Notes under the pieces: generated by a model
Told to the model about the DNA's origin: nothing
Database searches by the model: none
Seen by the model: only the letters and a program-made list of their open reading frames with translations
Origin: Trichodesmium erythraeum IMS101
Lineage (GTDB): Bacteria > Cyanobacteriota > Cyanobacteriia > Cyanobacteriales > Microcoleaceae
DNA: 32,000 nucleotides
Reading direction: 5' to 3'
Assembly (NCBI RefSeq): GCF_000014265.1
Contig: NC_008312.1
Coordinates: 4,290,001 to 4,322,000, forward strand
Part shown: positions 1-28,364 of the stretch, piece by piece
Numbering within the stretch: position 1 is the first letter of the stretch
Layout: each line of letters starts with the position of its first letter
Position numbers and translations under genes: made by a program

Positions 1-1026
1 AGATTTTTGGAGTAATTCATCAACAGATATACTCTCAGGTACCATATTTTTTCGTACAACACTATTTTTCCATGTTTCTAAATGATAGTATGAAAATTTA
101 CCAGTTTCAGGTAAGCATAAAGGGTCCTTAGGATATTTTGAATTTTCAAACTTCCAAGTTAGGGAAACTCCTGATTTACAAACTATTCCTTTATCATCAA
201 CCAAAAACATTAATAAATAAGTTTTTTGGTGAGTAGCTTTTTCGACTATTGGCCACCAAAATTTTTTAATTAAATCTGGTAAAAAACCTGTAAAAGTACG
301 GTGGAGTCCTGAAAAAATAAAAATTAAATTTTGAGTTTCTAAACATTGTAAAATTGCATTAATAACCTGTTCGTCTGTAGTATTTGAACCAAAAAATTCA
401 GAAGAAATTTTTCCCCATAATTCCCTAATATCGCTCATCCGAGTTAAATCCCTTTGGATTTTACGTCCATTACTTAATTCTGGCAATTTACGTAATAGCC
501 TAGTAAGCAGAGCTTTCTGACCACAATTTTCATCATACCCATCAATCAGAAAAGCTCCCGTTCGTTTGTGTGATTTTTGGCATTTTATAGCTTTTCTAAC
601 AGTATCTTCTTGTTCTGAAAAATCAATATCAATTATTGATTGAAACAACTGGCTGTTATTATTATTGCCTAAAGATGTTGATGAATTTAAGGGTAAAGAT
701 GGATTTTCTAATTCTTTTTTAACCTTGTTCCATAAATTATTAATTCTATGCCACATCTCGTCTTCTTCATAGTATTCATCTCTCAAATTTTCCAAAAAAA
801 TTATAAATATACACCCATATTCTTGATGTCTTGTTTTTATTAAAATATCCAGATTTAACATCACTAATAACCCTGGTGTATTAGCTTCTTTCAGTTTATT
901 TGATACCACATTTAATTCCTTAATTGCCCCGCAAAAACTACGCAAGTATTGAAAATTGGTAAAAATGTCGCATTCTAAAAGAACATCCCTGCATTCTTTA
1001 TAAAGTTCTCCTGGTAGCCCACTCAT
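1..1026 (-). CDS. Partial CDS (N-terminal 342 codons, continues past the left edge): death-like/EAD-type N-terminal adaptor module plus a STAND-like NTPase core with a degenerate P-loop
   Basis: Absent from the supplied track because it has no stop in the window. I checked all 342 minus-strand codons and found no in-frame stop. ATG at 1026-1024; product starts MSGLPGELYKECRDVLLECDIFTNFQYLRSF. The first 45 aa align gap-free with the N-terminus of the 1521-4466 product (14 identities by eye). GAFLIDGYDENCGQKALLTRLLRKL sits where a Walker A would be but lacks GK[ST]. NLIFIFSGLHRT is Walker-B-like but lacks the acidic residues. Confidence 0.65.
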   Translation of the reverse strand, partial: MSGLPGELYKECRDVLLECDIFTNFQYLRSFCGAIKELNVVSNKLKEANTPGLLVMLNLDILIKTRHQEYGCIFIIFLENLRDEYYEEDEMWHRINNLWNKVKKELENPSLPLNSSTSLGNNNNSQLFQSIIDIDFSEQEDTVRKAIKCQKSHKRTGAFLIDGYDENCGQKALLTRLLRKLPELSNGRKIQRDLTRMSDIRELWGKISSEFFGSNTTDEQVINAILQCLETQNLIFIFSGLHRTFTGFLPDLIKKFWWPIVEKATHQKTYLLMFLVDDKGIVCKSGVSLTWKFENSKYPKDPLCLPETGKFSYYHLETWKNSVVRKNMVPESISVDELLQKS

Positions 1027-1042
1027 ACAATTTTTTATAAAG

Positions 1043-1143
1043 ATTGTATTACACTATTAATATATAATAATAGAAATCTACACCTATAGCATTTTTTTGG
1101 CAAACCCAGTTAAAAACCATCTTGATAATTTTGTCCCAACCTT
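1043..1143 (-). promoter_or_regulatory. Conserved upstream element, copy A (about 17-117 nt upstream of the ATG at 1026); probable shared promoter or 5' leader
   Basis: Aligns with 4486-4602 upstream of the neighbouring paralogous-N-terminus gene. Shared blocks on the + strand: attgta, acactattaa, atataataat, agcattttttt, gcaa, cagtta, aaaccatcttgataa, gtcc, aacctt. Roughly 80 percent identity by eye apart from a 16-nt insertion in copy B. Confidence 0.5.
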
Positions 1144-1271
1144 TGAATTTCTTGCCCAGTCACATACCAAAAACTTACAGCAGGTCTACCATGCAGGAAA
1201 ACTGCTATATGATAATTTTCTGCAATCTTTTCTTAATATTCAACAGTTCTTGTCACAAGATATTATATTCA

Positions 1272-1368
1272 TGACTTACCCAGAACTGCCATATCTAGCA
1301 TTTACCCCCTATGGTATTTGCCACCTACAGATAGCGCATTATCTAAGAGTTTGTGTAGGTCCTGTATA
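1272..1368. repeat. MITE/REP-like small inverted-repeat element, possibly nested inside a larger copy spanning 1172-1428
   Basis: Left end tGACTTACCCAgaac (1273-1282 is identical to the 10-mer in the 9018 copy). Right end GTAGGTCCTGTATA (1355-1368). The termini are inverted complements with one mismatch. Outer candidate termini are aacttacagca (1172-1182) and taagtcttgtta (1417-1428). Confidence 0.4.
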
Positions 1369-1520
1369 TTTTAGTCATTTTTTTTTGATAATGACACTAC
1401 ATTTACTGTCATAGCCTAAGTCTTGTTAGAAAATGTTCTTGAGTTGCACTACCGCTTAACCAAACCTGTGATACTATCACTTTTTTATTCAAAATATTTG
1501 AAATTACTTCAAGTTATCAA

Positions 1521-4466
1521 CTACTCAGAATTCGAGCATTTCACCTTTGCTTCTTCAGGTGTTGAAAATTTGTCAGGAATAAACATGAAACCGGACGGCT
1601 GACTCGGACAACGATAAACCCGAATTGAGTTCAACGGTACTTTTTGACGATCGCCAGTCCCTGATTTAAATATAATTTCTCCTGTAGCCCCCTGAACGAT
1701 GAAATTTTCATCTGCCAATGTCTTCTGAATTCCTTTGCTAGTAGGGCGAGTACCTTGTTCCTGAATACCTTTAAGAATTACCTGCATTGCGTCATAGCTA
1801 AAAGCTGTACGGGCGCTAACATAACCTTCCCAAAGTTTGACAGCGGTATCAAAAAAATCAGAATTGTTGAGAGGATGCCCAGGAACAATCAAAATCAGTT
1901 TTTCTAGGAGTTGATATCGTGTTTCTTGGGATTGATCTTGAGCAATTTTCAAGGTTCTCGGGCTATAAACTGACCAATTAGCTACTATCCAATTTTGACC
2001 ACCATTTTCTTCAATAATTTTGAGACTATTATCGAAAGCATCACTTACTTGACCATCTGATATTAAAACAATTGCGAATTCCTGATCTCCTGCTTGTCTG
2101 CGGGCCTCATTGATGGCATCTTTAACCTTAAAATTATCCTCAGCAAAATAATCCATATTAAGTGATAAATTAATTATTTCTCCTTTTCCTTCAAATTTTT
2201 CTTCAAATTGTTTTTTTAAATCAGCGGAATAATAACTCTTAGGATTATAAAAAATTACAACTCTTGTTTGATTTTTATTCAGCAAAGAGTTAACCATGTT
2301 CTCTGCTTGCTCAATAGTCGTTGTGGTAGTCCGGAAAAAAACGTCTACCCTTTCTTCGGCGGTGAGTTTAGAAGTGGTTGTGCCTGGGGAAACCATTACT
2401 AGTTTTGCATCATCATATATATCTTTAGTCGCCATAGTCATCTCACTAGCCCAATGACCAACAACACCTAAAATTTCTGGGCGGCCGACTATTTTCTTCG
2501 CAACGTTCTCTGCGCCATCCTCTGAGTTAGCATCATTAGCAATAATAACTTTTAAGCCTTTATCATTATCATTATCATTAAACCTTTTGGCTTTTAGATC
2601 TACATTTGGAAAAGGCAAAAAAGAGAATTGCTTTTTCTTGAATAAACTTAAGTTAACTTCTGTTTGTGCTTGAGCTACTCCCCGCAAAATTTCTTCAGCA
2701 AGTTCTCCATTCACCTGCTCATTTTGATCTATAACTGGAACTACAACTGCAATAGTATAAGGATCAGCTTTTATATGTTCTAAAAAAGCATTATTGATAT
2801 AAATTAAAGTTTCTGGGTCCCGCCTTTCATTCTTCCAGCTTTCCTTAAGAGTATTTGCCACTCCAGCAAAACAATTCTGTATTTTAGTATTATTTTTCCA
2901 AATAGCTTGAAAATGATTCCAGGATTTCTGGCAGTATTGAACTTCTTTTACACCATTTTCTTTTTCTAGAGGTCTAGATGATTCTACCAGAATTTCCTCA
3001 CCTATACTAATGTTATCACCAAGAGGCTCATGTCTAGGAAGATAAATTAACCAGCGATAAATTGAAAAAATATCAATCAGAATCAACAAAAACGAAATTA
3101 TCCAACCGGTAGGATTTTGGGACAAAAACAGAGTTATCCCCCTGGTAAGATTTTGGGTTAGCCCAGGTTCATCTCCAATCAGCTCTTCTTTTCCCACAGG
3201 GGGTCTGGATGGTATTGAATTAAGACGATCATTGAAAATAGGAATTTCCCATTCTTGGATTTTTCCCCCTTCTCGGGATGCTTCAAGAAACCAAGATTTC
3301 AACTGATCCTTGCCTTTAATGAGTTCAAGTTCAATTTTATTAACTGTATAGTAATGCCAAATTTGTTTAGCTTTAGTATCAGTATGGTCACGTAGATAAA
3401 GGACAAAGGGGTAACCGGCAGTAATTTTTGTATTCAAGTGCATTTGAGCATCGACAGGATGATCGGTCAGTAACAAACAGGCACGATGTTTTCTAGCCCA
3501 ATTTTGGGTGTTATTGTCGTCACAAGCTTGGTGAAATTGGTGGGTATGAATAGCCAGTTTGCCCTCATTATTTTCACCAATAAGCTGAAGAAAGCTTGTA
3601 TTCAAACCCAAAATTCCGAGTTTTGCACTATTCTTTTCGATAGTGGCTGAAAAATCTCCTGGTAGAATACCAGCTTTTAGGTGTTCTGGCTTCCAGGGTT
3701 GTCTTTTCCACCAAGCCATATAATTTGCAAAAGCTTCAGCCATGACTAGACGATAGTCTGATTTTGCATCCTCCCAAAATTCTTGTTGTACCTCTGGTTC
3801 CTCAGACCACCGTTTTAGAAGTCTTACCGCTGGTTCTTTTTGATTAGGTCTAACTAAATCGTGATTTCCAGGTATTGCTAGTAGCTTAGGAGACGAACCC
3901 CATTCTTGGAATTTTGCCCATAGTTGTTCCAAAAGCTGATCGAGCTTTTCAAATTCTTCAGCACTACCCTCCTGAGTCAAATCACCAGTAAATAGCACTA
4001 AGTCCCACGGCTCACTTTTCTCGTGGAGCCTGTTTAAATCTTCAAAAAATCTTTTTTTTACGCGAGATGATCCCCCATTCTGTTCTTTTATGACTTGATG
4101 AAAGTCGGTTAAGTGTAACCAATTAAAGCTAGTTTTGTTATCAACACTATTCAGCTGTTTATTAAGCTCTTTTTCTAATTTAGATAAAGTGCTATGCCGA
4201 CTATCTTCTCGGTCAAACGTCTCACAAAGCAACCTTACCAAAATAACGAGTCCATTCTTATTGGTATGATATTTACCCACTAAAAAGCCAATCACGTGTG
4301 TTACTCGTTGGTCCGTATTGATACCTTGTGGTAAACTATTAGCCCAAAGGGAGAGCTGACGGTGACCGTTGAAAAAACTCTGTAGTTCTTCATTGCTGTT
4401 AAATTGCTCACACCTTGACAGAGATGCACTCAGTTTAGAATAGAGTTCAGGAGAAATTCCGCCCAT
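1521..4466 (-). CDS. Single-pass membrane receptor-like protein: EAD-type N-terminal module, calcineurin-like metallophosphoesterase, TM helix, extracytoplasmic type-I periplasmic-binding-protein (LivK/Peripla_BP_6-like) domain
   Basis: 981-aa ORF with an ATG start. Phosphoesterase motifs: WLHLTDFHQ (DxH), FTGDLTQEG (GD), IPGNHD (GNHD), LLLTDHP. The last motif reads LRDHTD rather than GHxH. One hydrophobic span, WIISFLLILIDIFSIYRWLIYL (about aa 455-476). The C-terminal ~480 aa carry PBP-like signatures: ISIGEEIL, VVGHWASEMTMA, VMVSPGTTTSKLT. Confidence 0.85.
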   Translation of the reverse strand: MGGISPELYSKLSASLSRCEQFNSNEELQSFFNGHRQLSLWANSLPQGINTDQRVTHVIGFLVGKYHTNKNGLVILVRLLCETFDREDSRHSTLSKLEKELNKQLNSVDNKTSFNWLHLTDFHQVIKEQNGGSSRVKKRFFEDLNRLHEKSEPWDLVLFTGDLTQEGSAEEFEKLDQLLEQLWAKFQEWGSSPKLLAIPGNHDLVRPNQKEPAVRLLKRWSEEPEVQQEFWEDAKSDYRLVMAEAFANYMAWWKRQPWKPEHLKAGILPGDFSATIEKNSAKLGILGLNTSFLQLIGENNEGKLAIHTHQFHQACDDNNTQNWARKHRACLLLTDHPVDAQMHLNTKITAGYPFVLYLRDHTDTKAKQIWHYYTVNKIELELIKGKDQLKSWFLEASREGGKIQEWEIPIFNDRLNSIPSRPPVGKEELIGDEPGLTQNLTRGITLFLSQNPTGWIISFLLILIDIFSIYRWLIYLPRHEPLGDNISIGEEILVESSRPLEKENGVKEVQYCQKSWNHFQAIWKNNTKIQNCFAGVANTLKESWKNERRDPETLIYINNAFLEHIKADPYTIAVVVPVIDQNEQVNGELAEEILRGVAQAQTEVNLSLFKKKQFSFLPFPNVDLKAKRFNDNDNDKGLKVIIANDANSEDGAENVAKKIVGRPEILGVVGHWASEMTMATKDIYDDAKLVMVSPGTTTSKLTAEERVDVFFRTTTTTIEQAENMVNSLLNKNQTRVVIFYNPKSYYSADLKKQFEEKFEGKGEIINLSLNMDYFAEDNFKVKDAINEARRQAGDQEFAIVLISDGQVSDAFDNSLKIIEENGGQNWIVANWSVYSPRTLKIAQDQSQETRYQLLEKLILIVPGHPLNNSDFFDTAVKLWEGYVSARTAFSYDAMQVILKGIQEQGTRPTSKGIQKTLADENFIVQGATGEIIFKSGTGDRQKVPLNSIRVYRCPSQPSGFMFIPDKFSTPEEAKVKCSNSE

Positions 4467-4485
4467 ATTTTTATCGACAAAAATT

Positions 4486-4602
4486 ATTGTACTACACTAT
4501 TAACATATACACCATTAACATATAATAATCAGGAGCTACAATTACAGCATTTTTTTTTGCAAGTTCAGTTAGAAACCATCTTGATAAATTAGTCCTAACC
4601 TT
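4486..4602 (-). promoter_or_regulatory. Conserved upstream element, copy B (about 20-136 nt upstream of the ATG at 4466)
   Basis: Homologous to 1043-1143 (see that feature). Contains an internal duplication of attaacatata that is absent from copy A. Confidence 0.5.
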
Positions 4603-4716
4603 ATTACCTGATGATATTTCGATGGAAGAGTTTGAATATTTGTTAGATTTGGCACCGGGAAAAGATGTCAAACTTTTCTCATAAAATGGTTTTGAAAACA
4701 TTAAATTCCGATTCTT

Positions 4717-6081
4717 TTAATACCTCATAAACTCAGGACTACCAAAAATTAAAGCCGCCCTTAAATCACCAGGACTTTGATCAATTACCCCACGAGTCTG
4801 AGCAGAAAAATTATTACCCAAAGTCCCCATTAACTTTTCTGCACTAATAGGTTTACCCCGACCCAATAAACCACCAGATAAAGGCACAGCTAAACTACTC
4901 CGTCGAATCATGGTATCCGAATCTAACCAAGCATCTTTTGTATTTTTATAACCATCAGGAGTAATACAACCATAAATAGGCATTCCTAACTGGTCTAAAA
5001 TCCCATTAATAGGTCGAAAATTATCAACCTCATTACCAATAGCTCTCATCGCAGAAACTACAAACCGATAAGGATTTTTAAACTTAGAATTATATACCTC
5101 TGGTTGCCAAAACTCTGAACTATTGAACAGAGTATTAAGTACCCGAGAAATATCCCCATCACTCTCCAAAAAACTCTGAGATAAAACTTTTACTAAAGAC
5201 TCAGATGGTTGGTCTAAAACAAAAGTTTGAGCTAATTTATAACTAATATATCTAGCCGTTGAAGGATGACTAGCCAAAATATCTAAAGCTGTTTCACCTT
5301 CAGCTATCCCATTCTCTTTAATTGTTTGTCCGAGAAAAAATTTATCTCCTGGTTCGTGACGTTTTTGATCAAAATAAAATCCATCTTTATCTTCTGCTCT
5401 TTTGTTATTAGGAGGTAGACCCCAACCAGTCAAAATTTTTGCTAAAGCCATAACATCATCTTGACTATAGCCTCCATCCACACCTAAAGTATGTAATTCT
5501 AATAATTCTCTAGCATAATTTTCATTTATTCTACCTCTACGGCTTTGCCAATTATCTAAATAAATTAACATAGCTGGATGATGAGCAGTAGCGCCTAATA
5601 ATAATCTAAACTTTCCCAAAGCATAGGGTCTAATTGCCTGCTGTTCATAACAGCTAAAATATAAACGATTTAGTCCTTGACGACCAAAAACATTAAAGTG
5701 ATTATACCAAAAATCTACCATCACCTCCTCTAAATGACGCGGACTTTCTAGATTCCTTAAAAAACGTCCTTTACTCCCCTGTAAAAAAACCTTTTGCTCA
5801 AAACGTTGTTTGATTCTATTTAATGCTATTCTATCTAATTTTAATTCTTTTCCCTGTTGTTGAAGTTGTTGTAATTCTTTGATTATTTCACTAGGAGTTA
5901 GGGGTAATGTATCTAGATATTTTAGCTTTTGAATTAGTAGTTTTTGGTAGGGTATAGAATTAGGTTCTAGTTGAGATTGAATATAATTTTCTACACCAAT
6001 ATTTTTAATCTTTTCAAGTTGTCCAGGAGTCGGTCCTAAACTAAGACGATTAATTAAGTGTAAAATTTTAATATCAGCCAT
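4717..6081 (-). CDS. DUF1800 family protein
   Basis: 454-aa ORF with an ATG start. Family-typical motifs: DFWYNHFNVF and NENYARELLELHTLGVDGGYSQDDVMALAKILTGWG. Confidence 0.85.
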   Translation of the reverse strand: MADIKILHLINRLSLGPTPGQLEKIKNIGVENYIQSQLEPNSIPYQKLLIQKLKYLDTLPLTPSEIIKELQQLQQQGKELKLDRIALNRIKQRFEQKVFLQGSKGRFLRNLESPRHLEEVMVDFWYNHFNVFGRQGLNRLYFSCYEQQAIRPYALGKFRLLLGATAHHPAMLIYLDNWQSRRGRINENYARELLELHTLGVDGGYSQDDVMALAKILTGWGLPPNNKRAEDKDGFYFDQKRHEPGDKFFLGQTIKENGIAEGETALDILASHPSTARYISYKLAQTFVLDQPSESLVKVLSQSFLESDGDISRVLNTLFNSSEFWQPEVYNSKFKNPYRFVVSAMRAIGNEVDNFRPINGILDQLGMPIYGCITPDGYKNTKDAWLDSDTMIRRSSLAVPLSGGLLGRGKPISAEKLMGTLGNNFSAQTRGVIDQSPGDLRAALIFGSPEFMRY

Positions 6082-6524
6082 TTCAGTTATGAATTATGAG
6101 TTATAAATTATGAATTATGAATTATTATTTATTATATTATTTATAAACTGTTTTTCAAAAGAATCTTAAATCCAAACTGAGCTTATTAATATTGCTAAAA
6201 ACCATTTTTCTTTCCCTTGGTCAAGAACGAATAAAAAATCATGATCTGCCAAACAATATTCTTGAAACCTAAGAGACAATGATAATTTCTCAAAAATATA
6301 TCTTACAGGTTATAAAATATTTTCATAAGCTCTGGTATCCCGTAATTAAAATCAAACAATACCATTTCTCTAACCTTGATGCTACCTTTGGATGGTAGTA
6401 ACAATAACTGGAAAAATCATAGACATTAGTTAACAATAAAATTGCGTCAATAAATAGTATTTAGAAATAAAAAAAACTAAATTAGCGCCAAGTTTTTGAG
6501 AATTGATATAACTTTAATATATTT

Positions 6525-6632
6525 GAACTTACGCCAAAAAACCTGGTTTCTAGGATAAACTATTGTTTGTAACAAACAATAGACATCCATAAAAAAACCA
6601 GGTTCCTAGGTACTTGTGAATAAGTCCTGTTA
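6525..6632. repeat. MITE/REP-like element with composite dyad symmetry; it may also act as an intrinsic terminator for the EF-G-like gene
   Basis: Family termini: gaacttacgcca (6525-6536) and taagtcctgtta (6621-6632). A perfect 23-nt palindrome, ctattgtttgtaacaaacaatag (6560-6582), is flanked by aacctggtt (6540-6548) and its complement aaccaggtt (6596-6604). On the minus strand the outer stem is followed by a T-run (complement of ccaaaaa, 6534-6540). It lies 44-150 nt downstream of the stop at 6676. Confidence 0.5.
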
Positions 6633-6675
6633 ATAATTAAACTATATCTACTTTTCATTTAAATATTAAAGTAGT

Positions 6676-8742
6676 TTAGCCATGACCACGACCATTACCA
6701 TTACCATTCTTGATCAAGACCTTTTCAGCTAACTTATTTGGCACTTCTTGTAAATGATCAAATTGCCAATTAAAAGAACCCACTCCCATTGTTTGCGATC
6801 GCAACTCCACAATTAAATCTTGCATTTCTGACAAAGCCAAATAAGCAGAAGTCTTATCCCACCTTTCCCAGTCAGTCATACTTTCATAACCCAATATCTG
6901 ACCACGACGGATACTAATTAACTGCAAAACTTTTGAAGTAAACTCATTAGGTGCAAAAATATCCACCAAAGCAATAGGTTCCAACAATACTGGTTGGCAG
7001 TCACTCATTCCCTGCTGCATTGCCACTCGCGCTGCCTGCTTAAATGCTTGCTCCGAACTATCAACAGAATGATGCGACCCATTAGTCAACGTCACCGCCA
7101 CATCAACCACGGGAAAACCGAGAGGACCCTGTTGAAGATATTCCCGCACCCCTGTTTCCACACCAGAAATATATTGCTTCGGCACCACTCCACCGACAAC
7201 AGTTTCACTAAAATTAAAACCTGACCCCCGTGGCAACGGTTGAATATCTAAATACACATCCCCAAACTGCCCATGACCCCCACTTTGATGTTTATAACGA
7301 CCATGAGAAGTAGTCTTTTTCCGAATAGTTTCTTTATAGGGAACTCGGGGTAAGTAAGTTTTCATCGAAACATTATACTTTCGGTGCAAACGCTCTAAAC
7401 TTACCTGTAGATGAATTTCTCCTTGACCCCAAAAGATGACTTCGTGAGTATCCCCATGTTGTTCCCATATTAATGCCGGGTCTTCTTCTAGCAACTTTGT
7501 TAAAGCGCTGCTCATTTTTACTTCATCTTTACGGTTTTCCGGAGCGATCGCCATAGCAAAAACAGGAGGCAATAGTATTACTCTTGGCAACTTAGTTTTC
7601 CCATCTGCATCTATAGTTAAAGTATCACCTGTATGTATACCTTCCATCCGACTGAGGGCAACTATTTCTCCAGTTTTAGCTAACTCTAGACTTTCTGTTT
7701 GCTGACCCATCAACCGATATATTCCACCGATGCGCACTCCATTTAAAATCATGCCATCAATAATTTCCCCTTGCCATACCCGAACTAATGAGAGTTTACC
7801 ACCTTGAGGAGTGTAGTAAGTTTTCAAAACTTGAGCAATAGGTGTTTCAGAATTTGATTTTAAACCTCGACGTTTTGCCGTTTCTTTTGGTACAGGAGTT
7901 TCTCGCACCAGAGCATCTAGGAGGGAACGCACACCAGAATCTTTTTCTGCCACCCCTACAAATACAGGTACAATTAAATCTGCACTTAACTCCATTTTGA
8001 TGTCAGCAACTATTTCTTCAGTAGGTGGTTCGATATTTTCGACCAACTCTTCCAATAAATTATCATCAAAATTAGCTAACTCTTCCAGCATTTGTTCTCT
8101 AGCAGCTTGTTCTTCTACTTTCAAAGACTCAGGAATTGTTACAGGGTCTGATGGCGCCCCTGGATGATAATGATAAGCTTGTTCAGTTACTAGGTCAATA
8201 AATCCAATAAGTTGGTTATTTTTAGCAATGGGGTATTGATGGGGAACAATGGGGCGGTTGGATACAGTTTTGAGTGCTTCTAATACTTCACCAAAGTTAG
8301 ATTTACAATGAGTTTCATCCCTACAGACCCGATCCATTTTGTTGATGAAGACTATATGAGGAATTTCCCAGTCATCAAGAAATTTTAATAGTGGAGCAAG
8401 GGTTAGAACACGAGCTGGGTCTGGTTCACACACGACTATTGCTGCCCCTGCTCCAATAAGAGCGTTATTGGTTTCTTGAGCAAATTCTATGGAACCAGGG
8501 CAGTCTAGAAAGGTAAAGTTAATGCCGTCGTACTTAGTACTAGCGGCATTTATTTCTACTGTCATGGAGCGATCGCGAGCTTCTGGACTACCATCTCCAA
8601 TGGTGTTACCATCTTTAACACTGCCTTTACGGGATATTGCTTTTGTAATTGATAATAGGCTTTCTAGTAATGTTGTTTTTCCACTTAAATAAGGGCCTAC
8701 TATGGCAATATTCCTGACATTTGAAGCGACTTTTTCTGACAT
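6676..8742 (-). CDS. Elongation factor G paralogue (translational GTPase, EF-G-like)
   Basis: 688-aa ORF. AGGAGG lies 6 nt upstream of the ATG. G motifs: GPYLSGKTT (G1), LDCPG (G3), NKMD (G4). EF-G domain IV/V-like sequence follows (HGRYKHQSGGHGQFGDV). Unusual tail NGNGNGRGHG. Confidence 0.9.
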   Translation of the reverse strand: MSEKVASNVRNIAIVGPYLSGKTTLLESLLSITKAISRKGSVKDGNTIGDGSPEARDRSMTVEINAASTKYDGINFTFLDCPGSIEFAQETNNALIGAGAAIVVCEPDPARVLTLAPLLKFLDDWEIPHIVFINKMDRVCRDETHCKSNFGEVLEALKTVSNRPIVPHQYPIAKNNQLIGFIDLVTEQAYHYHPGAPSDPVTIPESLKVEEQAAREQMLEELANFDDNLLEELVENIEPPTEEIVADIKMELSADLIVPVFVGVAEKDSGVRSLLDALVRETPVPKETAKRRGLKSNSETPIAQVLKTYYTPQGGKLSLVRVWQGEIIDGMILNGVRIGGIYRLMGQQTESLELAKTGEIVALSRMEGIHTGDTLTIDADGKTKLPRVILLPPVFAMAIAPENRKDEVKMSSALTKLLEEDPALIWEQHGDTHEVIFWGQGEIHLQVSLERLHRKYNVSMKTYLPRVPYKETIRKKTTSHGRYKHQSGGHGQFGDVYLDIQPLPRGSGFNFSETVVGGVVPKQYISGVETGVREYLQQGPLGFPVVDVAVTLTNGSHHSVDSSEQAFKQAARVAMQQGMSDCQPVLLEPIALVDIFAPNEFTSKVLQLISIRRGQILGYESMTDWERWDKTSAYLALSEMQDLIVELRSQTMGVGSFNWQFDHLQEVPNKLAEKVLIKNGNGNGRGHG

Positions 8743-9017
8743 AATTATCCTCCTGGCGAATGCTTAATGATTCAGCATTGATAATTGACAAAATAGCTTT
8801 TTTTGTTAGATTTTATATATTTTTTTTATACTCTACAAGCTATACTTTAAGAGGTTAACTTACTTTTAGCTACCATTAAAAAAATTTTCAATTATTTTAA
8901 ATTTTAGTTTAAATTAAATAAAGTTTAATAAACTAAGATCAAATATATTTAATTTTTGTTACTAAGCTTTACCGACAGCTAAAATTTATATATAAAGATT
9001 AAACTCATTTATTCTCT

Positions 9018-9093
9018 AGGACTTACCCACCCATCTGAAATTATTAACCTTATGTAAGACCTCTTACTATATATAGTAGTTATGGTAAGTCCT
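9018..9093. repeat. MITE/REP-like small inverted-repeat element
   Basis: Perfect 10-bp terminal inverted repeat: aggacttacc (9018-9027) and ggtaagtcct (9084-9093). Internal palindromes gtaagacctcttac and actatatatagt. The ends match the copies at 1272, 6525 and 15284. Confidence 0.55.
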
Positions 9094-9818
9094 GTTATAA
9101 AAGTTGAATTACCAATATTAAAAAAAAAGGAAAAGATACTATATTTATGCCTATCTTTGGTGAATTGCAGAGCTATTTCATTTAACAAAAAAGCACCTAT
9201 AAATGAGCAAAAAATACTCTAATCTTTATCTTTTCCTGACTAAGCTTAGAGAATAAAACAGGTATGGGTAGATTGCAAAAAAAATCTATAATTATTAATT
9301 AATTCTTAACTATTACTATTGGAAGCTGAAATATTTCTAGACAGACTGCCCTTATTACCTGTACTTAATCTTAAAATTTCAAATATAATTGTTGTAGTTA
9401 TTTTGTGTATCTAAACTCATATCTAGTGTCTAATTGCATAAATTAATATACTTATTGAGCCGATAAAAACCTTTGAACTAAAAGAAGGTAATAAAAAAAT
9501 AATATTACTAAGTTTTGCAACTAAACACTAGCATTAAACTGAACTAAACTTATTTAACAACTTATTTAATATTAACCGTTTTGATTGCTGATATTATGTC
9601 AGAATTTTGTATGAATACAAGTAAGATTTGCATTCATACACTAGCTGAAAATATAAGTGACGGTTAAGATACCTATCCCACAAATCTATTAAAGCCATCC
9701 TATATTTATGTAATGCCATAAATTGTCTTTATAGCAGTCAAAATAATTCACTCATAGTGCTGAATAACTTTACTCTTATGGCTAAATTTAACCTGTTCCA
9801 AAACTTTTCTAATCCTAA

Positions 9819-11165: not shown

Positions 11166-11467
11166 AAATATTTTATTTGACTTATTTAAATAGATTTTTG
11201 ATGCTTGAAAAAAACATTAATGTAATTCTATCACCATTAAGTATACAATCAAGTACAAACGAAATTTTTTCGACAATCTTTAGTTTTCAAAAGGTTACAG
11301 CTAGAAACATTTACTTATAGAACTCAGACCAACATCAATTTCCTAATACTCCAGAATATAATTAACTTTAGATAAATTGAATTGATTTGATTTAATTACT
11401 GATGTTTAGCTTTAAACTAGAAAAGTATACCCAAAACCAACAGAAAAAACCTAAGTAATAATTGGAT

Positions 11468-13120
11468 ATGTTGAAAAACTTATTATCTCAAGTTATATTA
11501 TTTCCTTGCTGGTTTAAAAAATTAATCAGTTCTTTACTGGACAAGGCTAACTTTAATACCCCATTCCCAAATAGCTCGATTCGCAAATCATTAAAATTTG
11601 GCCTTTGCGTAACTGTTTTATGTCTCTTCTGTTTTGGCCTTGTACCAATGATGGCCATAGCTAGAGAATATCAATCTTCAGGAGAAATCTCAATCAAACC
11701 CTACTTAGACCGAGTAATTAAAAAAGTCACAGAATTTCGCCTCAATAATGGCATGAAATTCATCGTTCTGGAACGACATAGTGCTCCTGTTATTTCCTTT
11801 GTCATCTATGCGGATGTGGGTGGAGCCAACGAGCCAGACGGCAAAACAGGTGTAGCTCACTACCTCGAACATTTAGCTTTTAAAGGTACAAAAAAAATTG
11901 GCACAAAAGACTATGAAGCAGAAAAACCTATTTTAGATAATTTAGATAGGATATTTGCACAAATTCAGCAAAGTAAAATAGATGGCAAAACTGAAGAGGT
12001 TGCTAAACTAAAAGCAGACTTTGAGAAAGCTCAAAACTTGGCATCTGAATATGTTAATCAAAATGAATTCTCGAAAATTGTCCAACAAGCAGGAGGAGTA
12101 GGACTAAATGCTGCCACTTCCGCAGACTACACTCAATACTTTTATAGCTTACCTGCTAATAAACTAGAATTATGGATGTCTTTAGAGTCAGAAAGATTTC
12201 TAGAACCAGTATTTAGGGAATTTTATAAAGAAAAACAAGTAATTCTGGAAGAGAGGCGATCGCGCACCGAAAATTCACCCGTTGCCCAAATATTAGAAGA
12301 GTTCCTCCGTAAAGCTTTTCTGGTACATCCTTATGGTCGCCCGATCATTGGTTATTCAAAAGAAATACAAAATTTAACCAGAGAGAATGTTCGGAATTTT
12401 TTCGATCTTCACTATGTTCCTAGTAACTTAAATGTAGCAATAGTGGGAGATGTTAACCCTAAGGAAGTTAAAAAGTTAGCAAAAATATACTTCGGTCGCT
12501 ACAAAGTCAAACAAAAACCCCCAAGACTTAATGTTGTTGAGCCTACTCAAGCTGAGACGCGGGAAGTAACGATGGAGTTGCCATCCCAACCTTGGTATAT
12601 AGAGGGTTATCATCGACCAGCAATGAATCATCCTGATAGTGTAATTTATGATATGATTACTAGTATTTTGAGTGATGGTCGTACTTCTCGCCTCTATCAG
12701 TCATTAGTTGAGAAACAACAAGTTGCACTTGTAGCTAGAGGGTTTAGTGGTTATCCGGGAAGTAAATACCCACATTTGATACTATTCTATGCTATGACTG
12801 CTCCTAATAGTAATATAGATGAAGTAGGAGCAGCTTTGCAAGCAGAAATTGAAAGGTTGAAAACAGAGCTAGTTTCTGAACAAGAGTTACAGCGGGTAAA
12901 GACTCAAGCGCGGGCAGGTATGTTACGTTCTCTAGATTCTAACATGGGTATGGCTTCTGCTCTGTTGGACTACGAAGTTAAAACAGGTTCGTGGCAAAAT
13001 TTATTTAAAGAGTTGGATATTATTAATGCTGTAACTAGGGAAGATATTCAACGTATAGCTCAAAAAACTTTTGTACCAGAAAACCGAACTATTGCTAGAC
13101 TACTTTCTAAGCAAAATTAA
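11468..13120 (+). CDS. M16 family zinc peptidase, catalytic subunit (pitrilysin-like), with an N-terminal membrane anchor or signal
   Basis: Inverted zinc motif HYLEHLAFKGT (HxxEH). Hydrophobic N-terminus FGLCVTVLCLFCFGLVPMMAIA. The track start at 11462 is a TTG; the first ATG is 11468, so the start is uncertain. Confidence 0.85.
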   Translation: MLKNLLSQVILFPCWFKKLISSLLDKANFNTPFPNSSIRKSLKFGLCVTVLCLFCFGLVPMMAIAREYQSSGEISIKPYLDRVIKKVTEFRLNNGMKFIVLERHSAPVISFVIYADVGGANEPDGKTGVAHYLEHLAFKGTKKIGTKDYEAEKPILDNLDRIFAQIQQSKIDGKTEEVAKLKADFEKAQNLASEYVNQNEFSKIVQQAGGVGLNAATSADYTQYFYSLPANKLELWMSLESERFLEPVFREFYKEKQVILEERRSRTENSPVAQILEEFLRKAFLVHPYGRPIIGYSKEIQNLTRENVRNFFDLHYVPSNLNVAIVGDVNPKEVKKLAKIYFGRYKVKQKPPRLNVVEPTQAETREVTMELPSQPWYIEGYHRPAMNHPDSVIYDMITSILSDGRTSRLYQSLVEKQQVALVARGFSGYPGSKYPHLILFYAMTAPNSNIDEVGAALQAEIERLKTELVSEQELQRVKTQARAGMLRSLDSNMGMASALLDYEVKTGSWQNLFKELDIINAVTREDIQRIAQKTFVPENRTIARLLSKQN

Positions 13121-13483
13121 GTTTGGTAGTATCGGTTAAATAAAGTAGATTTGATTCGGGGGAAAGTATTTACTGATATTTGTTATCCCACAAACTGGCT
13201 TTCTGATCACATTCTACTCCTAAGCAGAGTTGATCTAATGGTAGAACTCTAGTAGTGGACTGACACACCTAAAAAGGTATTTTTTGAACTAAGTAAAATC
13301 TAAGACGCCCCTTATTATGGTTTGCTTATTATGAGGGGAATTGCTACGTTCTATCCTACCAAATATAGGCTGATAGCACCATTTTAGCTTTTTCTGTCTA
13401 GCAAGGGTTTTTAGCTGCCTACCACAAACTACGGTTTAACAGTTAAAAATTATGTGGCGCCTTAACGCTCCGTCGATAAGTAT

Positions 13484-13581
13484 ACTGGATATAAAGTTTG
13501 GCGTGACAAAGATTTCCACTCATACCTGTTACACTGGATATAAAGTTTGGCGTGACAAAGGTTTCCACTCATACCTGTTAC
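13484..13581. repeat. 49-bp tandem duplication (2 units, 1 mismatch) in the spacer between the two M16 genes
   Basis: Unit actggatataaagtttggcgtgacaaagatttccactcatacctgttac at 13484-13532 is repeated at 13533-13581, with a single a-to-g change. Confidence 0.95.
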
Positions 13582-13654
13582 AGTTTAAATTTTAGCTGTA
13601 AATACGCAGCTGACAATAATGAACTTTTACGTCTAAATCTAACAAAAACAAATT

Positions 13655-15139
13655 ATGCTCTCTCACCAAAAGAAAATTACTAGATCAAAGCTTTTCTTAA
13701 TAGCATTTTTAGTAATAGTAATCCTATTATATATTTTAGGAAGGATGCCAGCTATAGCTATAACACCACCAAAACATTACACTGAACTAGAATTTCCACC
13801 ATTACCAAAATTAGAGCTGCCTGAATACACTCGCTTTAAACTTGAAAATGGCATAGTTGTATATTTAATGGAGGACCATGAGCTTCCTCTAATTGGTGGA
13901 CGTGCTTTATTTCGTACAGGTTCAAGATTTGAACCAGAAAATCAAGTAGGTTTAGCAAACTTAACTGGAACTGTTATGCGTACAGGAGGTACAACTCAAC
14001 ACTCTTCTGAATACATAAACCAACTACTTGAACAAAAAGCGGCAGCGGTAGAAACAGGTATCGGGGGTACTGCTGGTAGTGCTAGGTTTAGTTGTCTTAC
14101 TGAAGACTTGGCAAAAGTTTTTGAATTATTTACTGAGGTAATTCGCGAACCTGTATTTACTGAGGAAAAACTAGACCTTGCCAAACAACAATGGCAAGGT
14201 AACATTGCTCGTCGCAATGATGATCCTGGATCTATTGCTAGTCGCGAGTTCCAAAAATTGATTTATGGAAGAGAAAGTCCTTATGCTAGAACTGTTGAAT
14301 ATGAAACTCTCAATAATATTTCCCAGGAAGATTTAATTGATTTCTATACCAAATATTTTCATCCTGAGAATATGATTTTGGGAATAGTGGGAGATTTTAA
14401 TACTAAACAGATGCGATCGCTGGTCACAGAAAAACTAGGGGACTGGCAACCAAGTCGTCAAGCATTGAAGTTTCCTCTACCAAAAGTTACTCAGGCTGAA
14501 GTTGGTAATATATTTTTTGTAGAACAACCTCAGCTAAATCAAAGTTATATACAAATGGGTCATTTAGGCGGAAAATTAGATAATCCTGATTATACAGCTT
14601 TGAGTGTAATGAATAGCATCCTGAATGGTTTAGGGGGGCGCTTGCTCAATAATATTAGATCCCGCCAAGGTTTAGCTTATTCTGTTTCTGCTTATTGGAG
14701 TGCTAATTATGATTATCCAGGAGTATTCGTCGCTGGTGGTCAAACTCGTTCGGATGCAACTGTCGCATTTATCCAGTCTATTAATGAAGAAATTGAACTT
14801 ATCCGCACTCAACCTATTACACAAGAGGAACTTAAGCGGGCTAAAGATTCGGCACTCAATTCATTTATTTTCAACTTTCAAGACCCAGCTCAAACTTTAT
14901 CCCGTTTGATGCGATATGAATATTATGATTATCCTCAAGATTTTATTTTTCGTTATCGCCAGGAATTGGAAAAAATTACAGTTGCAGATGTGCAAAGAGT
15001 TGCTCAAAAATATTTGCAACCTGAGAAAATGGTAACTTTAGTTGTGGGTAATAAAGAAGCAATTCAACCGCCTCTGAGTACTTTGGGAGATGGGATTGAA
15101 ATTACTTCTATAGATATTACAATTCCAGAACCAAGTTAG
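13655..15139 (+). CDS. M16 family peptidase, non-catalytic partner subunit (no HxxEH)
   Basis: 494-aa ORF with an ATG start. N-terminal TM/signal LFLIAFLVIVILLYILG. M16 fold-like sequence throughout, but no zinc motif. Adjacent to the catalytic M16 gene on the same strand. Confidence 0.8.
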   Translation: MLSHQKKITRSKLFLIAFLVIVILLYILGRMPAIAITPPKHYTELEFPPLPKLELPEYTRFKLENGIVVYLMEDHELPLIGGRALFRTGSRFEPENQVGLANLTGTVMRTGGTTQHSSEYINQLLEQKAAAVETGIGGTAGSARFSCLTEDLAKVFELFTEVIREPVFTEEKLDLAKQQWQGNIARRNDDPGSIASREFQKLIYGRESPYARTVEYETLNNISQEDLIDFYTKYFHPENMILGIVGDFNTKQMRSLVTEKLGDWQPSRQALKFPLPKVTQAEVGNIFFVEQPQLNQSYIQMGHLGGKLDNPDYTALSVMNSILNGLGGRLLNNIRSRQGLAYSVSAYWSANYDYPGVFVAGGQTRSDATVAFIQSINEEIELIRTQPITQEELKRAKDSALNSFIFNFQDPAQTLSRLMRYEYYDYPQDFIFRYRQELEKITVADVQRVAQKYLQPEKMVTLVVGNKEAIQPPLSTLGDGIEITSIDITIPEPS

Positions 15140-15498: not shown

Positions 15499-16575
15499 TT
15501 TTTGTACCGTAGAGGAAAAACCAGTAATTTTTATATTCAGCTATGGGATACTGAAGAAATAAAGTTAGACTAAGTGCGGGAGTTGTTTTGGAATAAGCCA
15601 TCGGTTGATTTGTTGGTATTGTCTGCTTGTCGCACTGCTGTAAGAACTGGAATTTAGACTAAATACTTGAAGGTGCTATTAAGAAAAGAATTAAAAAAAA
15701 TTGAAACCATCAACAGATGTGAGAAACAAGATTTGACATTAGTTGACATGCATTGAGGGGCATAATAATTTTTTAACCCACTATCATACTCATCAGTGAT
15801 ACTGATACTCAGACTATTCAACTTCTTTGTCAACAATAATCAAAAGAGCTGTGGCTTTATAATTTAAAAATTCTTCAAAACCTCTGTCTCTTCAGGATGG
15901 TAGGTATTGTTTATTCAAAATGCTATAAATAATTGCTATGTCTGAGTTTGATGTCTTTTTACCATCTATTTAGGAACAACTCTAAAGATAAAATCAGGCA
16001 TTAAATTAAAATTATTTTGCTCAAATGCTTGATTTCACGTTAAAATCATTTCGTAATCAAGTTGATCATTTATTGGAAAATGCCAAGGATGCTGTTTTTG
16101 AACTGACTGATGCAGTAATGTTAAGCCCTAGTCCCAACTGGAACTGCATAATTATCTTTGTCCCCAGCATATCCCAGACAATGGCACAGCTACCATCAAG
16201 GCTCTCGAAAATTGTCATCAATAACAATATAAATTGATTGCAGTTTATATCAACCAAATGCCATTGTTGGTAGGAGATCATAGTGCTTGGCTACGAACAG
16301 AAACGAGTGTTTGGTCCGTGAGTGATCAAGGTACATTGGGGTTAATGACAGAGTTTTATACTCATTTGAATAGTGTTAAGATTAAGTCAGAGGCGTTAAT
16401 ACAGGGACAGTTAGCAATGTTGCAAGGGAAGGTGGTTATTACATATCGGGAGTTGAGGGGAAGCAACACTCGTGGTGTGGTGAAATTACCCTCGGCGTTC
16501 GCAAATATTAAGAATCAAAATTTATCTCATCTTTATTATTGGGAAGGGTTTACTATTGTTGTTAGTTCTTGGTAA
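15499..16575 (+). pseudogene. Relic of a CHAT-domain (caspase-like) protease gene: C-terminal part only, with an in-frame stop and a ~0.6-kb insertion
   Basis: One frame at 15499-15657 reads FLYRRGKTSNFYIQLWDTEEIKLD*VRELFWNKPSVDLLVLSACRTAVRTGI*. It carries the CHAT catalytic-Cys motif LVLSAC and a TAA at 15571-15573. The frame at 16234-16575 ends SVWSVSDQGTLGLMTEFY...LSHLYYWEGFTIVVSSW, a typical CHAT C-terminus. The N-terminal bulk of the gene is absent (the M16 gene ends at 15139). Confidence 0.7.
16025..16237 (+). mobile_element. Remnant of a DDE transposase N-terminus (IS4/IS701-like) inside the CHAT relic
   Basis: FRNQVDHLLENAKDAVFELTDAVMLSPSP resembles, from memory, the N-termini of cyanobacterial IS4/IS701-type transposases. 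There is no DDE core, and I found no terminal repeats. Confidence 0.35.
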
Positions 16576-28032: not shown

Positions 28033-28364
28033 GTTTTACCTCTATTAATAGTCGCTTCATAAATTTTTCCATTCTTTATTCTTAAATGATTTTTTGTGTA
28101 ATAGGATTTATTTTATAGAAAATCCTGAATTGCTCAAGTTAATTTTTATTATAAATTTTCTATTTTTGATTTTTAGATAATCAGACTTTATATAATAGAA
28201 GTTATACCAAATCTAGCTTAGTGATAGTGCATTTTTCAACTTACAACTGTTGCTCAATAAGGAATTTGGCTATGGGACAAGCCTGCTTTGATACTTTCAA
28301 GGCCAATTTCTTGGCACTAGAAAAAAATTGTGTCCTTTGAAATCTCATATATCTTTAAGTACTA

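Follow-up and report, generated by a model that had tools for sequence, protein, structure and literature searches.

Two tandem bDLD1 genes of Trichodesmium erythraeum IMS101 as predicted members of a vWA-MoxR-iSTAND ternary conflict system, one of them a receptor-like chimera

A 32,000-nt stretch of the Trichodesmium erythraeum IMS101 chromosome, referred to here at its full length as the window, carries at its left end two minus-strand genes arranged head to tail and separated by a 494-nt intergenic region. Gene A (4466..1521, 981 aa) has the N-terminus MGGISPELYSKL, and gene B, whose start codon is at 1026 and whose coding region runs past the left end of the window, has the N-terminus MSGLPGELYKEC. 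Comparison with metagenomic contigs and with other cyanobacterial loci indicated that they are very probably the first two genes of a five-gene vWA-MoxR-iSTAND ternary conflict system, and membership of this described system would explain why the two neighbours share an N-terminal adaptor. The class was described by Kaur, Burroughs, Iyer and Aravind (eLife 2020; PMC7159879 sections 7, 20 and 30), was extended in a second study (eLife 2021; PMC8195603 section 5), and is known from comparative genomics only. In these descriptions, the adaptor bDLD1/EAD3 is found at the N-terminus of iSTAND, an inactive STAND module, with a second copy on a neighbouring enzyme gene (PMC7159879, PMC8195603). The overall picture, in which membership of this system is combined with a Trichodesmium chimera that would have a membrane-scaffold role, is considered likely. 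The features concerned are the following.

1..1026, minus strand: gene B, bDLD1-iSTAND, predicted third component of the ternary system (Pfam and identity to Tery_2768)
712..1026, minus strand: bDLD1 adaptor of gene B, aa 1-105 (Pfam, BLASTP, profile comparison)
199..627, minus strand: inactive STAND module of gene B (Pfam PF19995)
1043..1143, minus strand: direct repeat copy 1, in the leader/promoter region of the iSTAND gene (repeat search, conservation)
1521..4466, minus strand: gene A, a chimera of bDLD1, degenerate metallophosphoesterase (MPE), transmembrane (TM) helix and periplasmic binding domain (PBP) (Pfam, alignments)
4152..4466, minus strand: bDLD1 adaptor of gene A, aa 1-105 (orthology to the internal bDLD1 of N400-bDLD1-MPE proteins, N400 being an N-terminal domain of ~390 aa)
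3261..4133, minus strand: calcineurin-like MPE domain, aa 112-402 (Pfam and motif alignment)
4098-4112, 3978-3989 and 3858-3869, minus strand: MPE motifs I-III, intact (motif alignment)
3456-3467, minus strand: MPE motif IV, TDHP replacing THHP (motif alignment)
3378-3389, minus strand: MPE motif V, DHTD replacing GHxH (motif alignment)
3246..3275, minus strand: fusion junction REGGK/IQEWE (IQEWEIPI), about aa 402/403 (pairwise alignments with both parents)
3039..3104, minus strand: single predicted TM helix, aa 455-476 (sole Kyte-Doolittle peak >1.6; homology to the TM helix of CHAT-TM-PBP proteins)
1659..2600, minus strand: type-1 periplasmic binding domain of the LivJ/ANF-receptor type (Pfam Peripla_BP_6, ANF_receptor)
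4486..4602, minus strand: direct repeat copy 2, just upstream of the gene A start codon (repeat search)

The product of gene A is identical to WP_011612313.1/ABG51952.1 of T. erythraeum IMS101, annotated as 'Extracellular ligand-binding receptor'. The visible 342 aa of gene B are identical to the start of Tery_2768 from the same strain (ABG51951.1, 372 aa; P0390), and therefore the window misses just the final 30 residues; the remainder of the left gene, whose recovery had been proposed in the initial annotation, is in this way accounted for. The locus tags Tery_2766-2769 were not mentioned in the literature that could be searched. The genes that follow were read from a metagenomic contig (L001), which has the same sequence as the window across the 494-nt intergenic region and differs at just 3 positions over ~4.3 kb upstream of gene A. 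Beyond gene B, this contig encodes a 315-aa AAA+ protein (AAA_5 and related models), then a 411-aa vWA protein of the CoxE type, and then a 1070-aa fifth protein that has TPRs, an alpha/beta-hydrolase-like region and, at its C-terminus, a third bDLD1, the adaptor being carried also by gene A and by the iSTAND protein. The AAA_5/AAA gene overlaps the end of the iSTAND gene both in L001 and in the contigs with an identical gene A, and its MoxR cluster includes a T. erythraeum RefSeq entry (7.75-Mb chromosome) and members named 'MoxR family ATPase [Trichodesmium erythraeum]'. The vWA protein of L001 is identical to IMS101 ABG51949.1 (UniRef name 'VWA containing CoxE-like'), and the accession order ABG51952, ABG51951, ABG51949 follows the locus; the VWA_CoxE Pfam model scored 23.7 bits in L001, below its cutoff, and 33.6 bits in L002, above it. 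Moreover, the contigs that carry the exact gene A protein continue with iSTAND, AAA+, vWA and the TPR gene.

The same operon order (gene A-type, bDLD1-iSTAND, MoxR, vWA, TPR) was found in L002-L005, in L006-L008, which belong to Floridaenema/Aerosakkonemataceae and two Nostoc strains, and in L015. It was also common to all nine genome loci recovered by an iSTAND profile search, from Caldora, Fischerella, Planktothrix, Microcoleus, Sphaerospermopsis, Microseira, Nostoc, a Nostocales strain and Floridaenema; altogether, the gene order is shared by Trichodesmium and ~14 loci of other filamentous cyanobacteria. The two gene families were adjacent in at least nine loci outside Trichodesmium, and the possibility that they never co-occur, for which the initial annotation had allowed, clearly fails. 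In every locus examined, the MoxR and vWA frames overlap or abut after iSTAND, and the iSTAND-MoxR-vWA set was found without gene A, while gene A was never found without this set. The upstream gene in all nine genome loci encodes an N400-bDLD1-X protein in which X is an MPE in four, and likewise an MPE in L002-L008 and L015. In L026 and all non-Trichodesmium loci, the fifth gene encodes TPRs with CHAT. The locus therefore resembles the published ternary system (PMC7159879) in its bDLD1-iSTAND third component, its adjacent MoxR AAA+ and CoxE-type vWA genes, its separate vWA-L/TPR gene bearing the effector, the second adaptor copy on a neighbouring enzyme gene, the filamentous, colony-forming cyanobacterial host, and effectors that vary between close relatives. 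It differs in that the example partner in the main text of the papers is a bDLD1-trypsin-like peptidase, whereas here and in many cyanobacteria it is an MPE, and in that the Trichodesmium partner has no N400, is degenerate in its active site, and continues into a fused TM helix and PBP.

The shared ~105-aa N-terminal module had been proposed to be an adaptor of the effector-associated domain (EAD) type, and this was borne out, the module being Pfam bDLD1 (PF20689, 'Bacterial Death-like domain 1'), i.e., EAD3. The 14 identities that had been counted by eye over the first 45 gap-free positions proved exact; 5000 shuffling trials gave 3.1 on average and 10 at most. Pairwise alignment gave a Smith-Waterman score of 79 versus 27.4 +/- 4.8 for shuffled sequences (z = 10.7; 0/5000 shuffles reached the score), and BLASTP aligned the N-termini of genes A and B with 24/106 identities (E = 4e-7). 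At the level of families, profiles built from the orthologue sets of both N-termini matched with 98.3% probability (E = 1.7e-14, 106 columns; hhalign). In comparison with domain profiles, gene B matched bDLD1 at 45 bits (cutoff 25; aa 3-95, E 1.5e-11; Pfam), and gene A fell below the cutoff, but its orthologues pass it and are annotated PF20689. In fact, the gene A adaptor is 55-60% identical to aa ~392-500 of P0003-P0008, which are ~885-aa N400-bDLD1-MPE proteins of other cyanobacteria. Among the three bDLD1 copies of one operon, those of gene A and the fifth protein share 40% identity (E 8e-17), those of genes A and B 24%, and those of gene B and the fifth protein 39% over 38 aa. An AlphaFold2 model of gene A aa 1-113 (pLDDT 89.6, pTM 0.83) comprises six helical elements, one of only 4 residues. 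It was also observed that P0010, an MPE protein, carries two tandem bDLD1 domains (aa 264-370 and 385-493), the second of which is 52% identical to the iSTAND-type copy of the window and not of the MPE type. These tandem copies would show that adaptor subtypes are shuffled between components.

Downstream of its adaptor, gene B continues into the inactive STAND module that had been recognised in the initial annotation. The iSTAND family (PF19995) matched at 67.9 bits (cutoff 24) over aa 134-276 (E 1.8e-18; Pfam). The Walker A position is occupied by GYDENCGQKA (aa 163-172, nt 511-540), whose pseudo-P-loop lysine is not conserved, being replaced by glutamate in several iSTAND orthologues (GQK/GQE, alignment A2), and the Walker B position is occupied by LIFIFSG, without an acidic residue.

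The partner had been described as a calcineurin-like phosphoesterase with a membrane receptor-type tail, and a Metallophos domain, a single hydrophobic segment and Peripla_BP_6/ANF_receptor matches were indeed found in gene A. Its N-terminal 41% matches bDLD1-MPE proteins, and its C-terminal 60% matches CHAT-TM-PBP and kinase-TM-PBP proteins. Upstream of the junction, the sequence aligns with the MPE C-terminus, and downstream with the pre-TM linker, TM helix and binding domain of CHAT-TM-PBP proteins; a 'REAR' microhomology is present in both parents at the fusion point. A junction at aa ~353, suggested by the extent of tblastn matches, was ruled out by the pairwise alignments, in which MPE homology reaches ~aa 402. 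An exhaustive phmmer search of 1.84 billion cluster representatives returned one 50%-identity cluster that spans gene A end to end (2169 bits), the next matches, at 481 bits for the MPE and 376 bits for the PBP, each covering one part and never the other, and therefore the fusion is confined to Trichodesmium as far as public data show. A bDLD1-MPE-TM-PBP fusion was not found in the available parts of the main texts and supplements of PMC7159879 and PMC8195603, and bDLD1+Calcineurin+PBP is not among the bDLD1 architectures given in the portion of the 2021 supplement (PMC8195603) that was accessible. The statement in the initial annotation that the combination was an unrecognised one consequently holds for the partner gene only, bDLD1-iSTAND being a published architecture (PMC7159879 section 20).

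The closest counterparts of the N-terminal part are the N400-bDLD1-MPE proteins, such as P0004 of Floridaenema/Aerosakkonemataceae BLCC-F50 and P0012 of Nostoc sp. TCL240-02. They have the orthologous bDLD1 (55-60% identity) and an MPE ~55% identical to that of gene A (80% at the DNA level for the gene of L015), and their genes occupy the same site, directly upstream of bDLD1-iSTAND. In contrast to gene A, they are soluble proteins of ~885 aa without TM helix or PBP, bear the ~390-aa N-domain, and have a full MPE motif set under purifying selection (dN/dS, the ratio of non-synonymous to synonymous substitution rates, of 0.2). Gene A starts at the methionine that opens bDLD1, and therefore the N400 domain, present in every relative, is gone. 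N400 itself is built of an alpha/beta part and, after it, three helices of ~50 residues (P0004 aa 1-390; equivalents in L002-L008 and L015-L024), stands before bDLD1 in all effector proteins that operons of this type encode outside Trichodesmium, and in L020 and L021 is also fused behind a vWA-L linker. It had no Pfam match, its AlphaFold2 model was poor (pLDDT 62), and Foldseek returned nothing for it at E <= 0.001.

The MPE domain of gene A was recognised by Metallophos at 40.6 bits (cutoff 21.5) and is ~55% identical to the conflict-system MPE clade, yet its metal-ligand motif set (DxH, GD, GNHD, H, GHxH) is incomplete. Two of about seven metal-ligand positions, ~98% conserved among 118 relatives, are altered: the motif IV histidine is present in 117 relatives and is an aspartate in IMS101, and motif V, whose glycine and two histidines are present in 116, 114 and 115 relatives, respectively, reads DHTD in all Trichodesmium alleles. 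The altered histidines were identified as metal ligands by mapping onto the Rv0805 phosphodiesterase, a weak match. A deletion of ~33 residues follows motif V. In searches with PADLOC and NCBIfam models, the domain matched candidate anti-phage proteins weakly and partially, far below the cutoffs. The phosphoesterase, which had been taken for a typical effector, is therefore probably not a working one here, since conserved ligands have been lost and the amino-acid sequence shows no purifying selection.

As for the receptor module, Peripla_BP_6 matched at 54.3 bits (E 2.3e-14; model positions 26-325 of 343) and ANF_receptor at 42.8 bits (E 4.5e-11). One TM helix lies upstream of the binding domain and there is no N-terminal signal peptide, from which we infer that the binding domain lies outside, so that bDLD1-MPE would be cytoplasmic and the binding domain periplasmic. 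Its closest relatives are CHAT-TM-PBP proteins of Okeania, Dapis, Hydrocoleum and Lyngbya (49-54% identity), which belong to a family of CHAT-TM-PBP (~900 aa) and Ser/Thr-kinase-TM-PBP proteins of the Oscillatoriales (Okeania, Dapis, Hydrocoleum, Limnoraphis, Lyngbya and, for the kinase forms, Microcoleus), usually annotated as 'ABC transporter substrate-binding protein'. The linker, TM helix, juxtamembrane region and PBP of the CHAT forms are 49-54% identical to gene A over 86-100% of its C-terminal 580 aa, and the same modules of the kinase forms are 40-42% identical. The cytoplasmic output of these proteins is a CHAT protease or a kinase, whereas in gene A an adaptor and a degenerate phosphoesterase take this place. 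In the related genus Dapis (sp. BLCC M229, L011), a DUF1800 gene has a CHAT-TM-PBP gene and, apart from it, a PBP fragment a few kb away at most (219-2927, 6432-7103 and 7499-8863), a layout that may hint at the ancestral site of the TM-PBP donor.

Strain comparison revealed that genes A and B differ sharply from their surroundings. Between the window and L001, 50 substitutions were counted in the 4.5 kb of genes A and B (1-4541) versus 3 in 4717-9000, which comprises the EF-G-like gene, the DUF1800 gene and intergenic DNA, i.e., a density 16-fold higher than in the flanking genes (p 2e-11). In gene B, all 18 coding differences were non-synonymous and none synonymous, 14 of the 18 falling within bDLD1. 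Comparison of L001 with L012, a TARA-derived lineage, gave a dN/dS of ~2 for iSTAND, 0.31 for MoxR and 0.08 for vWA, with similar dS for all three genes and an odds ratio of 12 for non-synonymous to synonymous changes in iSTAND versus MoxR and vWA (p 2e-6). Against L009, a gene A allele 84% identical to that of the window, dN/dS was 1.46 for the whole gene, 3.9-5.4 for bDLD1 (p 0.012), 1.6 for the MPE and 1.05 for the PBP, the tests for values above 1 being each marginal (p 0.012-0.05) and based on two or three alleles that are partly metagenome assemblies. For the MPE of relatives, the L015 versus L002 comparison gave 0.2, and the odds ratio between the MPE of gene A and that of the relatives was 7 (p 2.5e-6). 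Fast evolution and variability between strains characterise the iSTAND protein and gene A, and MoxR and vWA are conserved. A diversity-generating retroelement was rejected as the source of this variability: no template-like repeat of the variable stretches turned up in L001, L012 or the window, and the substitutions show no specificity for adenines.

The reading frame of gene A has been kept through these changes. Three alleles with <=16% protein divergence retain an open frame of 981-1019 codons, where neutral drift simulated with as many substitutions as observed would produce 6.7 stops (P of none = 0.001), and each of the eight internal indels has a length divisible by 3. A more drastic rearrangement was found in the St11-type contigs (L025-L028), which are 99.6% identical to the window down to 3372 and in which positions 1239-3371 are replaced by an opposite-strand 694-aa FAD-oxidoreductase/SLH gene (L025 11111-13564), the flanks being 99.6% and 94.6% identical. 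The exchange removes gene A from aa 366 onward together with the next 282 nt downstream; the break lies two residues past DHTD, and the fifth gene of these contigs is TPR-CHAT. The mosaic alleles P0371 and P0388 point to recombination among the types. In L012 (8889-10001 and around), of a Trichodesmium-like lineage, ferredoxins, DUF3326 and a truncated EF-G-like copy lie upstream of iSTAND-MoxR-vWA, and neither gene A nor the DUF1800 gene is present there.

A further link between both genes is a duplicated leader. Two copies of a ~100-120-nt repeat, 80-92% identical, lie ~20-135 nt upstream of both start codons and are far more alike than the coding N-termini of genes A and B (23% aa identity); copy 1 is likewise conserved before the iSTAND genes of L012-14 and L025, and in L015 a 58-nt portion is kept. 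From this likeness beyond the coding N-termini and this conservation before iSTAND, gene A seems to have gained a duplicate of the iSTAND leader/promoter when its N-terminal domain was lost. Short peptide resemblances had suggested another origin, from the 3' end of a former MPE gene, but this was dropped, since tblastn with nine MPE proteins found no match there. No RNA structure was apparent in the leader, RNAalifold giving -6.5 kcal/mol with essentially no covariation and Rfam matching no family.

In the published model, iSTAND would act as sensor and assembly platform, an invader-derived signal being followed by multimerisation; its bDLD1 would recruit other bDLD1 proteins by like-with-like contacts; MoxR and vWA would set an ATP-dependent activation threshold; and a hydrolase or CHAT domain would execute the response. 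To this scheme gene A would add, in the preferred reading, a pseudo-enzyme scaffold by which the assembly is anchored at the inner membrane and which may relay a periplasmic ligand signal. Judging from its anatomy, gene A in Trichodesmium is most likely no longer a phosphodiesterase; it is more likely a membrane tether of the assembly, which may couple it to a periplasmic small-molecule cue. That the gene is still functional is rather probable.

Several observations weigh against this picture. No experimental study of an iSTAND system was found by the literature search, and the sensor, adaptor and effector roles in vWA-MoxR-iSTAND systems have been predicted by comparative genomics. In IMS101 itself, the fifth gene was not reached, because all contigs with an identical gene A end inside it (L029, L030, L031 and 8 further similar contigs), which suggests a repeat or polymorphism in this gene. 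The gene A adaptor scored 19.7 bits, under the Pfam cutoff of 25, and the Death-like fold expected for an EAD was not reproduced. The best Foldseek match of its model in the PDB had E = 1.0 and a TM-score of 0.35; no Death, CARD, PYD or DED entry was found among the matches in PDB, of which the top 50 were inspected, and BFVD; and the bDLD1 profile gave no Death-fold match at E <= 10 against PDB sequences (hmmsearch). The published link to the Death superfamily, as given in the supplement of PMC8195603, is a weak profile-profile score (bDLD1 vs PDB_CARD, 6.5e-4). The module is therefore treated as a member of the bDLD1 family, with a putative place in the Death superfamily. To these points are added the marginal selection tests given above, the 397-aa bDLD1-MPE stub left in the St11-type contigs, where gene A is cut after aa 365, and the L012-type contigs, which have iSTAND-MoxR-vWA without gene A. 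Moreover, a dN/dS near 1 and lost metal ligands are also expected of a decaying gene.

Decay is, in fact, the most pertinent of the alternatives, although it is judged unlikely: gene A would be an accidental fusion with a dead enzyme, its frame open by chance or through recent origin, and would take no part in the iSTAND system. Such a fate agrees with a dN/dS of about 1-1.5 over the MPE and PBP parts, with the loss of two ~98%-conserved metal ligands, of ~33 aa and of the otherwise universal N400, with the swap of everything after aa 365 for an unrelated gene in the St11 type, and with the absence of the gene from L012-type contigs; Trichodesmium genomes are also known for gene fragments, and the window itself contains a CHAT relic. 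However, the frame of 981-1019 codons has stayed open in three alleles (P of no stop = 0.001) with 8/8 indels in frame, gene A has its own copy of the iSTAND leader, and the non-synonymous excess peaks in the adaptor (dN/dS 3.9-5.4, p 0.012), which fits diversifying selection better than decay. The opposite possibility, that gene A is a working ligand-gated phosphodiesterase receptor whose active MPE degrades a nucleotide second messenger or attacks nucleic acid, appears quite improbable. Motifs I-III are intact, motifs IV and V each keep one histidine, and the replacing residues are aspartates. Aspartates can bind metals. Among solved structures, the nearest relatives are two cyclic-nucleotide phosphodiesterases, Rv0805 and Icc, the parent receptor family normally has a PBP-TM-enzyme layout with CHAT or a kinase as the enzyme, and calcineurin-type phosphodiesterases are listed as nucleotide-signal enzymes in these conflict systems (Kaur et al., PMC7159879). 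All of this must be set against altered positions that are invariant in 114-117 of 118 relatives, a deleted conserved segment past motif V, a rise in dN/dS from 0.2 in relatives to 1.6 in the MPE of gene A, and a sister lineage that keeps just the first 365 residues.

The reading of genes A and B as a self-contained STAND-NTPase-plus-effector pair of a previously unrecognised combination, as advanced in the initial annotation, is extremely improbable. These two are the only system genes visible in the window and the adaptor is common to both, but the STAND module is a catalytically dead iSTAND, MoxR and vWA follow it in every locus examined, and iSTAND-MoxR-vWA exists without gene A and never the converse; the pair is an artefact of the window edge, just beyond which follow the genes of the MoxR ATPase, of vWA and of the main effector. 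A bolder extension of the tether reading, which is also improbable on present evidence, regards gene A as a bacterial counterpart of a death receptor, its periplasmic binding domain and one TM helix being joined to a cytoplasmic Death-like adaptor that docks on iSTAND-MoxR-vWA. In colony-forming Trichodesmium, a defence or cell-death complex could then be gated from outside the cell, by a cue such as an amino acid, a peptide or an infochemical of the colony or bloom, and not by an invader signal inside it, and the enzyme domain could have been kept as a pseudo-enzyme scaffold while the adaptor surfaces came under diversifying selection. The comparison with animal death receptors such as Fas and TNFR1 is an analogy only: these likewise have an extracellular ligand domain, one TM helix and a cytoplasmic Death-like adaptor, this adaptor matches that on an oligomerising STAND-type platform, and relatives of the operon include caspase-like (CHAT) proteases. 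In contrast, gene A had no sequence or structure match to metazoan Death domains in the tests run, its ligand domain is of another type, and its adaptor is N-terminal and far from the membrane.

In the surroundings of the operon within the window, a DUF1800 protein gene (4717-6081, minus) lies directly adjacent upstream of gene A, followed by an EF-G-like GTPase paralogue gene (6676-8742, minus), a cytochrome P450 gene (9819-11165, minus) and two tandem M16 peptidase genes (11462-15139, plus), all of them near-invariant among the strains compared. A CHAT-protease relic noted 11 kb away in the initial annotation is present (16234-16575, plus), although no connection to the system was found. It is a 113-aa ORF matching just the last 60 positions of the CHAT model, with possible further fragments from ~15580. 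The EF-G-like, DUF1800, P450 and two M16 peptidase genes lie between it and the operon, whereas the CHAT genes of relatives directly adjoin the operon. A link of the relic to the operon TPR-CHAT protein or to the CHAT-TM-PBP parent was rejected, only marginal local matches being obtained (E 0.002-0.1). Farther on, the 1382-aa product of 17061-21209 (minus) combines a phytase-like domain with RTX calcium-binding repeats and two glycerophosphodiester phosphodiesterase regions and is probably an enzyme secreted for phosphorus scavenging; a DDE_3-type transposase gene occupies 28330-29469 (plus). The AT-rich stretches 9000-9800 and 21200-23500 (26-30% GC) hold no ORF of >=100 aa. An Rfam scan of the whole window matched no family, and a promoter and terminator scan gave counts not above those of shuffled sequence.

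Taken as a whole, part of this locus is already known: the shared adaptor and the inactive NTPase are textbook features of the system described in 2020 and have Pfam models, and a bDLD1-phosphoesterase partner is common in cyanobacteria. The new elements are the Trichodesmium-specific receptor-like chimera, its degenerate catalytic site, and the strain-level evidence for a fast-evolving iSTAND and accessory gene. Among 1.84 billion cluster representatives, gene A is the sole example of a conflict-system phosphoesterase joined to an extracellular ligand-binding receptor module. Within a single genus, the locus offers a series of states, in which the accessory gene is a full fusion, truncated or absent and the fifth gene carries a hydrolase or CHAT domain, and this series could inform the role of each bDLD1 part. 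The rapid diversification of the predicted sensor and of the adaptor-bearing accessory protein around a conserved MoxR-vWA engine fits the arms-race logic proposed for these systems. Programmed cell death of Trichodesmium matters for ocean biogeochemistry. Were the receptor reading wrong, gene A would be an ordinary, partly eroded member of a described family; were it true, outside cues would be linked to a death-type assembly in a bloom-forming nitrogen fixer.

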